Virus record (IMG/VR): IMGVR_UViG_3300037461_000547
Coordinates: 1-64,000 of that record
Strand: one strand, 5' to 3'
DNA from: a virus
Lineage: Duplodnaviria > Caudoviricetes
Length of the DNA stretch: 64,000 bases
Position 1 is the first letter of the stretch; each line of letters opens with the position of its first letter. The notes under the pieces are model-generated. The model had not been told where the DNA came from, searched no databases, and worked only from the letters and a program-made list of their open reading frames with translations. A program made the translations under genes and the position numbers. Below are positions 6,350 through 27,712 of this stretch, in pieces.

Positions 6350-6486
6350 TCAATGATTTTGTGAATCTAAATGGGTTGGATAACTTTTCCGTACAACTGA
6401 ATACAGACAATGTGGAAACTGTACATCTTAGACACTTTGGGCCTTGTGAAATTGAATCACCCCAAAAAATTGTCGGTGCATATGAT

Positions 6487-6642
6487 CTATTTAGAATCTT
6501 TTCCATCTTTAGATTGTTCCCACAGAGAGTGACAGATTGCTACTGCTTGTTCCTGATTTTTAGCTGTACCTTCTTCAAGCACAAACGGTACACAACGCGT
6601 TAAAAACTCTGATTTCGTTTCATTTTGTCTTGGTCTTGGCAT
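6487..6642 (-). CDS. Small conserved phage head-module protein
   Basis: MPRPRQNETKSEFLTRC...QAVAICHSLW motif, which I recognise from phage head modules. Confidence 0.55.
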   Translation of the reverse strand: MPRPRQNETKSEFLTRCVPFVLEEGTAKNQEQAVAICHSLWEQSKDGKDSK

Positions 6643-6655
6643 TTTACACCTACAC

Positions 6656-7498
6656 TTATGGCTTATGCGTCTGGCGTCCAACAGGCTGATTCGATGAAGT
6701 GACATTTGCACCTGTGACCTGATACAGAGATTTTTTATGTATAACAGTTGCTGTGCCTTTTTCCCGATATTCTAAAGTCCATGGTGTCGTCGTTGTATCG
6801 ACGTAAGTGTCTGCTTCAAGAATCTTTTTAACATTGGTTAAATCAAGAGCATTGGCAACCCACTGTCCAAACCAAGACCCTGCTTTAATCACATCTGTTG
6901 TGTTTAACGCGTTTGTTTCTCCAGAAAGTCTAACACCATCAGAAATTGCTGAAGCAATATTTAATCCGTAGCCGCCAGATGACTCAATTTGTACGCCACT
7001 ACCGGTATCATTCGTGACATAGATACCGCCATATATGGTACTGGCGTCCACACGAAGCTGTCCAAGCGTCAGCGTGTCTTCACTTGTGGTACCAAAGTCA
7101 GTTACTCTGGTATTATTGTTCCATGCTTCGACGGTCCCGTTCCAATCAATCGTAAAGTTAGTGATAGACGGGTCTGTCGATTCAAGTCCATCTTCATCGG
7201 AGTCATCATAAATACGAATTACATACGCACCCGCTGTTATAGTTGCTGGAAAATCAGCATAATAATATCCAAGATTTCCAGTATCTTCAGTTAAAGCAAC
7301 AGCACGATTTGCATAAGTAACAGACGTTGCAATTTCAAAAGCTGGAGTACCTGTTGTATCCCAAACATATCTGTCCGTTGGGCGTGTGATAGTTGCTTTG
7401 AGAGTTGTGTATCCTGTGTCAGTGATGCACCAAATCTCGTTGCTGGCTTTTGCAAATATTGAAACCAATAAAAACAACGTGACAAGTAATTTTTTCAT
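6656..7498 (-). CDS. Signal-peptide-bearing putative virion/secreted protein
   Basis: N-terminus MKKLLVTLFLLVSIFAKA (basic, hydrophobic, AxA); strong RBS AGGAG. Confidence 0.6.
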   Translation of the reverse strand: MKKLLVTLFLLVSIFAKASNEIWCITDTGYTTLKATITRPTDRYVWDTTGTPAFEIATSVTYANRAVALTEDTGNLGYYYADFPATITAGAYVIRIYDDSDEDGLESTDPSITNFTIDWNGTVEAWNNNTRVTDFGTTSEDTLTLGQLRVDASTIYGGIYVTNDTGSGVQIESSGGYGLNIASAISDGVRLSGETNALNTTDVIKAGSWFGQWVANALDLTNVKKILEADTYVDTTTTPWTLEYREKGTATVIHKKSLYQVTGANVTSSNQPVGRQTHKP

Positions 7499-17887: not shown

Positions 17888-18009
17888 TTTATTAAATCAG
17901 TACGACACTACCTGTGCTGCAGGTAGCACAGTCACGTTAAGCGTCCTGTCGCCATTGGAAGGCCTGTGGGGAAACTCACAATACCCCAACGGGGTAGAAA
18001 GGCCTAACA

Positions 18010-19284: not shown

Positions 19285-19352
19285 ACGTGCTTAAATAGAA
19301 CACCCTGCGGGTCTTCCAATGGCGGCAGACGCAGACTATATGGGAGGCCAAA

Positions 19353-19544
19353 ATGCGTAAAGTCATAGAAACTTTGCTTCGGATTCTTCGAATCCATAAG
19401 AAGCAATATATCACCTATCAAAGACGTGCCGTTGACCCGTTGGAGTCAATGGTGAAAATGTATAAAAGGCAACCTTCAATTCGAGTACTGTTTCTATTAA
19501 GAAACACAACCAATGGATTACCAAAGTTGAAACTGAAACGGTAA
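19353..19544 (+). CDS. Small hypothetical basic protein
   Basis: SD GGAGG 5 nt before ATG; 63 aa. Confidence 0.5.
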   Translation: MRKVIETLLRILRIHKKQYITYQRRAVDPLESMVKMYKRQPSIRVLFLLRNTTNGLPKLKLKR

Positions 19545-19592
19545 AGAAGTAGACATAGTCTGCCGCTTAATGGCGACAGGAATCATCTATTA

Positions 19593-19704
19593 GGGGCGCA
19601 ATTGTGTGGCGATGAGGATACATCGTTAAAACACACAATGGGTTCAGAAAATACCCTTCCCAACGGATAAAAATTCGAGAACACGAATCCACGTGTTCCG
19701 CCCC
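19593..19704 (+). ncRNA. Unidentified multi-branched structured RNA
   Basis: Closing stem GGGGCG/CGCCCC; arms ATTGTGTG/CACACAAT, CGATG/CATCG, GGGT/ACCC, GAACACG/CGTGTTC. Confidence 0.55.
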
Positions 19705-19712
19705 GTCTATAC

Positions 19713-19929
19713 GCCCCCATAGCTCAATTGGTAGAGCGTCGAGTGTAGAAGCACAGGGAGATAATGCCGTGCCAATCGTAAGATTTGACGAATCTCTACG
19801 AAAAGGTTGTGGTCAATATGGGTTTGCTGCCCAGACCATCACGGAGAAATAATGCCCTGCTACCTTGAAGGCGTGCCCTGTAGGTTCGTCACTACGCTGG
19901 GCCTGTGGGTTCGAGTCCCACTGGGGGTA
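19713..19929 (+). ncRNA. tRNA-like RNA with a ~140 nt structured domain replacing the anticodon loop
   Basis: Acceptor GCCCCCA/TGGGGGT-A, D arm GCTC-AATTGGTA-GAGC, T arm GTGGG-TTCGAGT-CCCAC; no CCA; no canonical anticodon arm. Confidence 0.75.
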
Positions 19930-19962
19930 TTTGGTGACAGGACGACAGGAAGGACGGTCACT

Positions 19963-20232
19963 ATGGCAGAAACAGCACCTAAATCTTCGAAAGAAGTGAT
20001 GCGTGAAATCGCGGAGAAAAATACTATCCCAGAAGGATATTCTCTCGAACAAGAAATACACATATCGCTCGACGATACTTTGATTTCAGAGGTGGCGTGC
20101 CAACTCCTACGGTATAGAGTTCGCGCCATTCGTTTAGATGGCGAGTGGGAGTTACCAGAATGGGTGTATAAATCCGCAGAGGATATTGTTGATTCATACA
20201 TCCATGAACACTTTATCCATCGTAAAAGATAA
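19963..20232 (+). CDS. Hypothetical protein
   Basis: ATG at 19963 with SD AGGAAGGA; the longer track ORF overlaps the ncRNA. Confidence 0.6.
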   Translation: MAETAPKSSKEVMREIAEKNTIPEGYSLEQEIHISLDDTLISEVACQLLRYRVRAIRLDGEWELPEWVYKSAEDIVDSYIHEHFIHRKR

Positions 20233-20315
20233 CCCTTAAGATGTCGTCAATCCTGTCACCCAATGACGGTAGGACGATAGAAAGTGAGGTGCATATGAAT
20301 AGAGATAATCACTAA

Positions 20316-20851: not shown

Positions 20852-20892
20852 AAACGCCCGTATCTCGTTATGAGGTACGGGCGTTTTTTTAT
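20852..20892 (+). terminator. Rho-independent terminator
   Basis: AAACGCCCGTATCTC / GAGGTACGGGCGTTT stem followed by T7, just after the 20849 stop. Confidence 0.85.
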
Positions 20893-20934: not shown

Positions 20935-21124
20935 TGATTGCACAATCATAACCCGATTACTGTTATTGTATTCTTTTTATAAAAAAAAAAAAAAAAAAAA
21001 AAAAATAATATAAAGAATAGGAACTACCCCTAATCGGTCATTTTCAGTAATGTGAAAATTATCACAACACACCCACCGCCCGCTGCCCATCACAACACGC
21101 CCATCACAACACACCCACCGCCCG
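20935..21124. other. Non-coding element: palindromes, A25 tract and 22 bp direct repeats
   Basis: TGATTGCACAATCA at 20935-20948; A25 at 20981-21005; ATCACAACACACCCACCGCCCG at 21061-21082 and 21103-21124. Confidence 0.8.
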
Positions 21125-21285
21125 TAGAACGGTTAAGCAACGGTTGCTTTGCCCTTCAGAGCTTGAAACACCACACCACCCACCAAAACTACCAATAAAA
21201 AAAGGTCGCTTCCTATCTCAAGGAGAGCGACCTACAACCACGATGCTACAATCAGATTGCACAATCATAATCGCATCTGGCACAA

Positions 21286-21714: not shown

Positions 21715-22704
21715 ACCTTTACCTTTCCACCGCCCAACATCGGACGTCGAAACGTTGTCCTTTTCGGATTCGCTCAATCTTAAACACACGTTTAATAATT
21801 GAGTAACAAAGAGCTATCGTGTCTTCACCGTCTGCTACGAGAATAAATACTTCAGATTTTTTGACAACTTTATAACGACCCTTTGGATTCATTGTAATCT
21901 CGGCACGGAATTTACAATGGCCTCTCGGAAGACCAAACATTTCAACGCGCCAATAGCTTGTGATAAATTGTCGCCTGTAAAAAATAGTGTAATTAATTTT
22001 TGTGAATGTCCGTATCATTGTTCTTTCCTTTCAACACCTGCTATTTCTTCGAGAAATAGCACTTGTTTTTTCAAGTGCGCAATCTCATCCCGTAGTTTGT
22101 CTTCGACAGGGGCGGGTGTTAATAACCTCCATGATTTCCCCAATCGTATACTCGTCTGAATCAAACATAAGCATAAAATTACAGTCATTGTTTGTGCATT
22201 CAACATTGTTCGTAGAGAAATATGGCTTCTGATTAACAGGCCCCATTGATGTTGCATTTTTAACTAATTTTAATTCACTTCCGCAAATGGACATGGCTTC
22301 ATTTTAGAACCCTTTTATTTCTACCATTTCGATGCCTTCAATCTTTTCGGATTGAAATACGGTGGATACTTCATTAGCATCACAGTGGGAGATAACACCG
22401 AATATTTCGATTGTCCTGCTATCTGACTTAAAATCAGTAATTGCCTTTTGAGCGACTTCCTCATTACAAATATACTGATATGTAGAAGTCGTAAAAACAA
22501 CAAGTTTCACTCGTTTCATTTTTCAGTCTCCTTTCAAAAAGGTGCGGCGGGCAGTTGGTCTGCAACTCTTTCGTTTTCGTCCGGTTCTTACTGCCGGATT
22601 CCGTTATCGTTTCGCCAACGCCTACGGACAGGGTGAGTCTGGCCACCACGCCACCGCCGCATTATTCAGTTTTCAATTCCAGAACAAACTTAAACAAGGT
22701 TCAC

Positions 22705-23803: not shown

Positions 23804-24943
23804 TTTTCATTCTCCTTTATTCCGTATGTTTTATGAATTTCATCAAGCGGAGAAATTTCGATTATCCCCTGCCGCAACACGTTCGGCAGACTTCGGCTGC
23901 CGTTGATGTAGTCGATTCCGGTGCGGTGTAAAATCCGTAAGGGACTAATCCTTTGCCCTCACAGACCGGACATTTTTGGTACATTTTTCAGTCTCCTTTC
24001 AGCCCGTGCCATTTTGTCACGGGCTTAAAATTAGGCGGCGGGCATTCATCAAAATCTTGGTTTGACCTCAGTACGGCTTATTAGGACTTAAACCAAGTAA
24101 CCTCTTGTCCTGTATGTCCGTCGTTTTGGTCTGGTAGATGTTTGTCACCGCCGCCCAAATCAATTACGTTTACATTTACATTCGAGAGGGTGTTTCCCAC
24201 ATTTAGGACAAACCATTTTATTCTCCTTAAAATTAGGCAGCGGGCAGGATAAAACTGGCAATATTTCCTGAGCAATCTTTACAAAGACCTTTGGGGAGCA
24301 AGACTCAACCTACTCAATCAGTTCCAGTTTTGGCTGCTTCATATAAGCCACCGCCGCACGATTCTAATAATATTTACCCCAATTCCCGAACCTCTTAACA
24401 TATTCCTCTTTACATGTCTGCGCTGCCACTTCATTACCGTCGACAAACTGGGCCATGTAACATGCCATTAAAAAATCTGCCTCCACATGCTTACCAATTC
24501 TATCCAATGTAATGATGTCATCATACATATCACTATCATTTGCCATGTGTCCCTCTCAATTGTTTATATTCAAAATCAGATTCACAAGGACTGGGAACTG
24601 CAAACTGGATAGGGACGACAACCTGACCGTCACAGTGTTTATGATTTCTTAAATCATTGACAGTATCACGTGTCGACGCAAGCAGTTGCGATATTCTAAA
24701 CACTTTGTCTGCTAACCTTTCGATCTTTTCATCACGCTTAAGTTCATCCCAATACTTTGCTCTTTTATTGGATTCCATGTTCATGATGTGTCCTTTCTAA
24801 ACTTAATTTCGATTTAGCCAATCTAAGTTCTGCTGTAAGATATTCAATATACTTTGATCGGCTCTCAATACGTTCTTGTTTTTGTTCAAACGTTAAATCT
24901 TCCCAACCTCGAAACAAGTCATCACACATTTTGCACCGTCCTT

Positions 24944-27555: not shown

Positions 27556-27636
27556 TGCCAGTACCATGGGGGATTCGAACCCGCATTCCTGATACTATTT
27601 ATCAGATCCTACCAATTAGATGAATGTGTACTGGCA
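27556..27636 (-). tRNA. Degenerate tRNA / tRNA-like element, 5 nt anticodon loop
   Basis: D arm ATCT-AATTGGTA-GGAT, stem TGATA/TATCA with loop AATAG, T arm GCGGG-TTCGAAT-CCCCC, extended acceptor TGCCAGTAC/GTACTGGCA; no CCA. Confidence 0.6.
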
Positions 27637-27712
27637 ATATTCACAGGTGAGTGAGTCGACACCGAGCCGACTCACTCTATTGAAGGGAGACCTAAATAGA
27701 AAGGGAGAAGAC

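Follow-up and report, generated by a model that had tools for sequence, protein, structure and literature searches.

What does a phage gain from an RNA that is tRNA-shaped almost throughout and has no anticodon? The question is raised by an element of 217 nt on the plus strand of the window analyzed here (positions 19713-19929), a stretch of 64,000 nucleotides taken from the start of an IMG/VR phage record of 81 kb. With no anticodon, the RNA cannot read codons. Judging from the sequence of this element and of one distant homolog, it is probably a working tRNA look-alike and not a decoder.

The phage record encodes a GpA-type large terminase and a portal protein, a family A DNA polymerase, a class II ribonucleotide reductase, a UvrD-type helicase and two ParB proteins, as well as a DNA methylase, a LuxR/sigma-region-4 protein and an Rv2179c-like 3'-5' exoribonuclease. 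From its sigma region 4 domain and family A polymerase, the phage looks bacterial; its terminase is very distant from those of cultured phages (at most 27% identity). A domain scan identified no tRNA enzyme, Ro60 or reverse transcriptase among the ORFs scanned (30 ORFs for TROVE/Ro60). The sole public run matching the stretch is a wetland DNA metagenome, which may be its source, and no public RNA run carries it. The element is situated within a plus-strand operon of small genes that diverges from the terminase operon and is closed by a strong terminator (20852-20886). Two co-oriented ORFs of 63 aa (19353-19544) and 89 aa (19963-20232) flank it, and no promoter-like site was found adjoining it. 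Upstream lies the gene of a 424-aa protein, termed ParB-like, without a Pfam match. No Pfam or PHROG family was found for the neighboring proteins, and no close relatives were found for the downstream 177-aa protein.

The Rfam tRNA model RF00005 matches the element from end to end, covering all 71 model positions (1-71) with a score of 35.3 bits against a cut-off of 29 in a local search of positions 19600-20050 only. The E-value is 8e-6 locally and 3.4e-7 over the 81-kb genome, in which the element is the sole match to the tRNA model. The tRNA frame is beyond chance, and the original prediction of a tRNA-shaped RNA lacking an anticodon loop is borne out. In the RF00005 alignment, two large insertions fall within the anticodon and variable region. 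Across the whole window, ARAGORN reports no tRNA or tmRNA and Rfam at the gathering threshold gives no match; both miss the element because of its insert. Of the model searches that had been proposed as a check, ARAGORN thus calls nothing, while RF00005 succeeds when the search is local.

The acceptor stem pairs GCCCCCA (19713-19719) with UGGGGGU, followed by the discriminator A73 (19922-19929); these are nt 1-7 and 210-216, counting 19713 as nt 1, and the stem is supported by the Rfam alignment and by a pair probability of 1.0. The first pair, G1.U72, is weak, and CCA is unencoded. U8 and A9 lead to the D arm (19722-19737; GCUC / AAUUGGUA / GAGC, with A14, A15, G18G19 and A21), a generic class I arm found in many class I tRNA isotypes. 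The T arm (19905-19921) has the stem GUGGG/CCCAC and the loop UUCGAGU, and is preceded by a C and U48 (19903-19904), the rest of a variable region of just 3 nt; without a variable arm, the frame is of class I type. The set of elbow nucleotides is complete (U8, A14, A15, G18G19, A21 and U48), and A15 and U48 are able to form the Levitt pair. The acceptor, D and T stems have pair probabilities of approximately 1, the helices P1, P3 and P4 of the arm described below 0.7 to 0.8, and the whole RNA has a minimum free energy (MFE) of -81.7 kcal/mol (z = -2.7 versus shuffles). Since the acceptor, D arm, T arm and elbow nucleotides are all retained, the RNA should adopt the L-shape of a tRNA. The three arms had been described as canonical; all are present, with the corrections that the acceptor opens with G1.U72 and that the variable region is 3 nt. 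The element thus shares with canonical tRNAs the 7-bp acceptor, the 4-bp D stem, the 5-bp T stem with its UUCGAGU loop and an anticodon stem at 27-31/39-43, but differs from them in the 153 nt that replace the 7-nt loop, a G29xG41 mismatch, the short variable region, the G1.U72 pair and the lack of an anticodon.

The anticodon stem is retained as UCGAG/CUGGG, mismatched at G29xG41, and G26 is paired with C44. Five nucleotides at either end of the 153-nt insert lengthen this stem into a helix of 11 positions, P1, whose 5' strand (19738-19748) consists of G26, UCGAG (27-31, with G29 mismatched) and the 5-bp extension UGUAG, and whose 3' strand (19892-19902) consists of CUACG, CUGGG (39-43, with G41 mismatched) and C44. 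AGTGTAG (19742-48) and CTACGCT (19892-98), proposed earlier as a long helix, do pair, with six Watson-Crick pairs and one G-U. Beyond P1, the MFE fold comprises P2, a large internal loop, P3, a three-way junction with P4 and P5, and a 3' hairpin, P6. The anticodon stem thereby leads into a long, irregular arm of about 40 bp-equivalents, at the end of which is the conserved P4 hairpin. The 5' strand of P2 and P3 (19754-19771) runs CAGGG, AGAUAAUG, CCGUG and the 3' strand (19840-19859) runs CACGG, AGAAAUAAUG, CCCUG, the middle segments being the two sides of the internal loop; pair probabilities are 0.59 for P2 and 0.72 for P3. The P4 hairpin (19776-19801) has a lower stem UCGUA/UACGA with a bulged C, an upper stem AGAUU/AAUCU and the loop UGACG. 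The P5 hairpin (19809-19838) is closed by GUGGUC...GACCAU and contains an inner UGGGU/GCCCA. P6 (19870-19890) forms with a probability of 0.5.

Several details of the inner domain had been predicted previously. ACAGGG (19753-58) and CCCTGT (19876-81), the latter contained in P6, are perfectly complementary as claimed, but the MFE fold prefers CAGGG (19754-58) with CCCTG (19855-59), at a probability of 0.59 versus only 0.04 for the earlier pairing; the alternative fold lies 2.3 kcal/mol above the MFE. CCGTG/CACGG, TCGTA/TACGA, AGATT/AATCT and TGGTC/GACCA are found as described, each occurring once. The reported repeat, AUAAUGCC, likewise exists as two 15-nt copies with 13 of 15 bases alike, which form the two strands of a pseudo-two-fold-symmetric helix-loop-helix around the internal loop (copy 1 in the 5' strand of P2 and P3, copy 2 in the 3' strand). 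A 12-nt direct repeat with at most one mismatch is present in 7 of 300 shuffles of the 217-mer. The repeat is missing from the homolog, and thus is not a conserved functional motif. The short internal frame QYGFAAQTITEK* is present in the window, but as a candidate tag it has no counterpart in the homolog.

No simple excision turns the element into a decoding tRNA. All single deletions between position 26 and the T stem were enumerated, and none yields a canonical anticodon arm: the best retains the mismatched stem and the 3-nt variable region, and 7-nt loops never come with U33. When long variable arms are allowed, the candidates are weak and inconsistent, and no anticodon is common to the window element and its homolog. 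The P4 tip was considered as an anticodon loop (UUGACGA in the window, UUGACUA in the homolog, reading 'GAC') and rejected, as the arm is far too long to decode and position 37 is unconserved. A 'GUA' loop was rejected as well, the GUA motif lying at differing places in the two elements. Nor was the P4 tip retained as a -35 promoter box, since no properly spaced matching -10 was seen by eye. In the local search, group I intron, tmRNA, ribozyme and riboswitch models and other Rfam families gave no match at E<=10.

A single homolog was found, on a 90-kb metagenomic phage contig (L165:6354-6547; 194 nt, plus strand). It lies at the syntenic position and on the same strand as the window element, 64 nt downstream of a ParB-like gene whose product is 52% identical to that of the window. 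It was found with a strict frame scanner, the criteria of which were a 7-nt acceptor (at least six pairs), U8, a D stem of 4 bp whose loop contains GG, an insert of up to approximately 350 nt and a T stem of 5 bp with a TTCRANN loop. The scanner recovered the window element and exactly one other long-insert frame, that of L165; its background was 4 matches in 300 shuffles of the 11.3-kb L165 locus and one doubtful match in approximately 640 kb of other related DNA. The L165 frame contains U8, A14, A15, GG, U48 and a UUCGAAU T loop, and its anticodon loop is replaced by 98 nt. No plus-strand ORF longer than 30 aa spans the L165 element. Two measures are weak for this homolog: it matches the Rfam tRNA model only in part (13.7 bits), and its MFE is no better than that of shuffles (z = -0.4).

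The two elements have the same design. In both, the arm begins directly after the D stem, positions 26 and 44 are paired, and the anticodon stem (AAGGC/GCGUU in L165) carries the G29xG41 mismatch. The tip of P4 (19781-19795) is the sole insert sequence kept in the homolog, with 13 of 15 positions identical (AGAUU-UGACG-AAUCU at nt 69-83 of the window element, GGAUU-UGACU-AAUCC at nt 71-85 of L165; consensus RGAUU-UGACK-AAUCY) and a near-equal distance from the 5' end. A hand-made structural alignment of the acceptor, D, P1, P4 top and T helices allowed 29 pairs to be compared: 10 are unchanged, 2 have one partner altered, 16 have both partners altered yet remain paired, and 1 is broken (G1.U72 in the window, G1xA72 in L165). 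For the covariation check suggested with the original prediction, the outcome from one distant homolog is that the design persists, with compensatory changes at 16 of 29 pairs. Apart from the P4 tip, the inserts are about as different as random sequence and their inner folds differ; the AUAAUGCC motif, P5, P6 and the internal frame are all absent from L165. Each RNA contains one GUCAA, the complement of the P4 loop; that of the window element lies in P5 (19812-19816), that of L165 in the variable-arm hairpin loop. A UUGAC:GUCAA loop contact in both members is possible and is offered as a lead only, having been noticed post hoc with a roughly estimated chance probability of about 3%.

The L165 frame is of tRNA-Leu type, and its P1 and T stem are separated by a 9-bp hairpin that resembles a class II variable arm. 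Its 18-nt D arm has a single exact match in IMG/VR, a genuine phage tRNA-Leu(UAA) gene (L216:12776-12864), which shares 25 of the first 27 nt of the element. As the frames belong to different tRNA classes, part of the compensatory change could reflect two parent tRNAs and not long constraint. A homologous insert may reside in two different tRNA frames. The favored reading is that of one ancestral element that diverged, possibly with gene conversion by tRNA genes, given the synteny, the shared mismatch and the equal divergence of the inserts.

Other relatives do not contain the element. The 424-aa ParB-like protein has five relatives with 50-59% identity in a large protein collection, and examination of their contigs indicated that the ParB-like gene and a 160-177-aa protein are conserved flanks, while the small ORFs between them differ. 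In L166/L167 and L169, other elements of about 115 nt with a terminal helix occupy the syntenic place and have no tRNA frame. The element is absent from about ten further contigs encoding the ParB-like neighbor family, many contigs of distant relatives being too short to tell. Comparison of the window and L165 elements with cultured phages by blastn gave no match, and searches of viral contigs with a two-motif pattern, with a pattern of P4 tip plus T loop and with the ParB-like protein were equally negative. No similar element was detected by blastn, ARAGORN or the frame scanner in 44 IMG/VR loci around related terminases (approximately 50% identity). Searches of viral and genome collections gave no additional copies of the insert, and full-text literature searches found no published description of such an RNA.

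The pattern searches also returned ordinary tRNA genes. In genome contigs, 32 of the 33 matches to the P4-tip plus T-loop pattern are tRNA genes and not homologs, situated approximately 50-60 nt downstream of a TTGAC-containing stretch that resembles a -35 promoter box; the remaining match, in L194, proved on direct reading to be no homolog. A D-arm plus T-loop pattern had at least 119 matches, and all those checked are tRNA clusters or att-type partial duplicates. Two IMG/VR contigs (L053:89-315 and L067:82-307) carry, right at one end, a complete tRNA-Thr(CGU) gene preceded at a distance of about 150 nt by a 5' fragment of the same tRNA that extends to the anticodon loop, a pattern expected of prophage att sites in a tRNA gene.

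The explanation that we rank first, and to which we give about an even chance, is that the element is a gene for a stable, non-decoding tRNA mimic that is cut from the early transcript by tRNA-processing enzymes. Host RNase P and 3' tRNA-maturation enzymes would release the RNA from the polycistronic transcript and add CCA; the tRNA body would provide stability and access to tRNA-binding host factors; and the long arm with its conserved tip would carry a specific activity, such as protein binding or RNA pairing. The design is still kept in two phages whose neighboring protein is only about 50% identical, which supports this explanation; against it, only two members were found. The main rival, which we regard as unlikely, is that the element acts in cis to punctuate or stabilize the early mRNA; its tRNA-like fold would then be just an RNase P/3' processing site separating cistrons, and the RNA set free would have no role of its own. 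The position of the element between co-oriented small ORFs, with no promoter-like site adjoining, agrees with such a role, as do the structured elements and the recurring palindromic hairpin (see below) in every intergenic region of the operon and its relatives, and the other ~115-nt terminal-helix elements at the same place in L166 and L169. However, RNase P requires only an acceptor/T-arm minihelix, and both members keep a D arm, a Levitt pair, an arm of about 40 bp with a conserved mismatch and a conserved tip. A decaying tRNA gene, either a pseudogene or a tRNA disrupted by an insertion and now without function, is less probable again. The missing anticodon loop, the weak first acceptor pair (G.U in the window, GxA in L165), the absence of the element from most relatives and the poor conservation of the inner domain would all be expected of decay, but both members retain all four frame helices and every tertiary nucleotide despite neighboring proteins at about 50% identity, and decay would not keep G29xG41 and the P4 tip at the same offset.

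Two further alternatives were weighed. A tRNA interrupted by an intron of a novel type, or by a mobile element directed at the anticodon loops of different tRNAs, would become a working tRNA upon removal of the insert, which lies exactly at the anticodon-loop position; the two frames of different tRNA classes with shared insert features, and the enigmatic introns reported in Lak megaphage tRNAs (PMC6784885), are also compatible with this reading. It is nevertheless improbable: excision points in the window give no 7-nt loop with U33, no anticodon is common to both members, no group I core was found, and searches of viral and genome collections gave no additional copies of the insert. Moreover, the phage looks bacterial, and to our knowledge bacteria have no protein tRNA-splicing endonuclease. 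The original prediction had already doubted a group I intron, correctly so: a test for the catalytic core (P3-P9) gave nothing against Intron_gpI at E<=10, excising the insert never regenerates an anticodon arm, and the insert (153 nt, and 98 nt in L165) is too short when set against the smallest group I introns known to us (approximately 200 nt). Least probable by far is ribosome rescue in the manner of tmRNA, with the internal frame serving as the tag. With tmRNA (SsrA) the element shares a tRNA-like acceptor/T-arm module, a long helix leading to a large structured domain, a bacterial context and a short internal ORF with a stop. It lacks the pseudoknots, a conserved tag frame and the G3-U70 pair (pair 3-70 is C3-G70 in both members), and has a full D stem, which tmRNA does not. 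The putative tag would have TEK at its end, where known tmRNA tags are hydrophobic, and the frame is not conserved in L165. The earlier doubt about tmRNA identity agrees with these observations and with the results of ARAGORN and Rfam, neither of which detects a tmRNA (E<=10 for Rfam). A match to a tmRNA or to an intron-containing tRNA model, named originally as a possible refutation, was looked for and not found.

A non-decoding tRNA mimic could act in several ways. Escherichia coli LeuRS uses A73 and A15-U48 as identity elements and does not read the anticodon. Conceivably, the RNA could be charged by an anticodon-blind synthetase, with LeuRS as the obvious candidate because the L165 frame is of tRNA-Leu type and the window RNA has A73 and A15-U48. 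The likeness to class II tRNA-Leu comprises the 5' end, D arm and long variable-arm hairpin of L165 along with these nucleotides of the window RNA; it does not extend to a Leu anticodon, the window frame is class I-like, and the discriminator and pair 72 of L165 are irregular. The RNA is also a possible decoy for factors that read the acceptor end or the elbow. The decoy for anticodon nucleases suggested in the original prediction is unlikely, as there is no anticodon loop to cut. Its other suggestions, a decoy for tRNA-sensing defences and a protein scaffold, are speculative. More tentatively, and with what we consider a rather low probability, the two elements may represent an undescribed class of phage RNAs in which an intact tRNA body serves as a handle delivering a long effector arm. 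The body would then confer RNase P/CCA processing, stability, possibly anticodon-blind charging and access to host proteins, and the arm might titrate a tRNA-directed defence or toxin that recognizes the acceptor end or the elbow.

Other non-coding RNAs, some of them phage-encoded, reuse the tRNA fold for tRNA enzymes or processing, including the bacterial Y RNAs (YrlA), mascRNA and plant-virus tRNA-like structures (TLS). YrlA is circularly permuted relative to the window RNA, its long helix being made by its two ends, and the topology here is the reverse; the element has no Rfam match to YrlA, and no TROVE/Ro60 protein is encoded in the 30 ORFs scanned. The nearest published report concerns the Lak megaphages, some tRNA genes of which contain unexplained ('enigmatic') introns (Devoto et al. 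2019, PMC6784885). These are likewise inserts in the anticodon region of phage tRNA genes, but in the Lak cases an anticodon and isotype can be assigned after removal of the predicted intron, whereas here no anticodon remains.

Phage tRNA genes are usually taken to assist codon usage or to replace tRNAs that host defences have cleaved. Neither role is possible for an RNA that keeps all parts of a tRNA except the one that reads codons. Provided that it is produced and stable, the RNA would parallel in nature the engineered 'tRNA scaffold', add a new kind of tRNA mimic to phage-host conflict and serve to test which host factors recognize the tRNA body alone. Since tRNA finders miss the element, such genes are probably under-counted.

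The operon contains further structured elements. A palindromic hairpin, CUGUCGCC-AAU-GGCGACAG, recurs with variants in its plus-strand intergenic regions, with copies in the window at 17941-17961, 19313-19332, 19560-19580 and 20253-20280. Copies are also found in relatives, in L165 (6328-6348 and 6563-6590), L166 (five within 6366-7055) and L169 (2455-2475, 2600-2625 and 2728-2750), and the core is kept where proteins are only about 50% identical. The hairpin often precedes AGAGUGC, or a ribosome-binding site and ATG. Each copy is self-complementary, so that copies can also pair with one another. Possible roles are those of an RNase III-type processing site, a protein-binding site or a phage promoter. 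A 112-nt multi-hairpin element (19593-19704, plus strand), closed by GGGGCG/CGCCCC, ends 8 nt 5' of the tRNA-shaped RNA. The fold of 19545-19712 has a z of -5.25, and none of the shuffles folds as well; the 112-nt element has no Rfam match and no counterpart in L165.

On the minus strand, three intergenic elements of 117-122 nt (22544-22660, 24037-24154 and 24236-24357) have GCGGCGGUG(G/A)C at the start and CCCGC(C/U)GC at the end, which make a terminal helix of 7 bp around unrelated interiors, one of which contains a T-loop-like GGUUUAAGUCC; they have no Rfam match at E<=1. A tRNA-like piece, also on the minus strand (27556-27640), combines an acceptor GCCAGUA/UACUGGC+A, the T loop GGUUCGAAUCC, the D-loop-like AAUUGGUA and a hairpin CUGAU-AAAUAGU-AUCAG with irregular spacing, and is called by neither ARAGORN nor Rfam. 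Right after the operon terminator, positions 20980-21130 of the window contain a run of approximately 25 A followed by CA-rich near-repeats (CACAACACACCCACCGCCCG...), within the gap ahead of a converging dUTPase gene.
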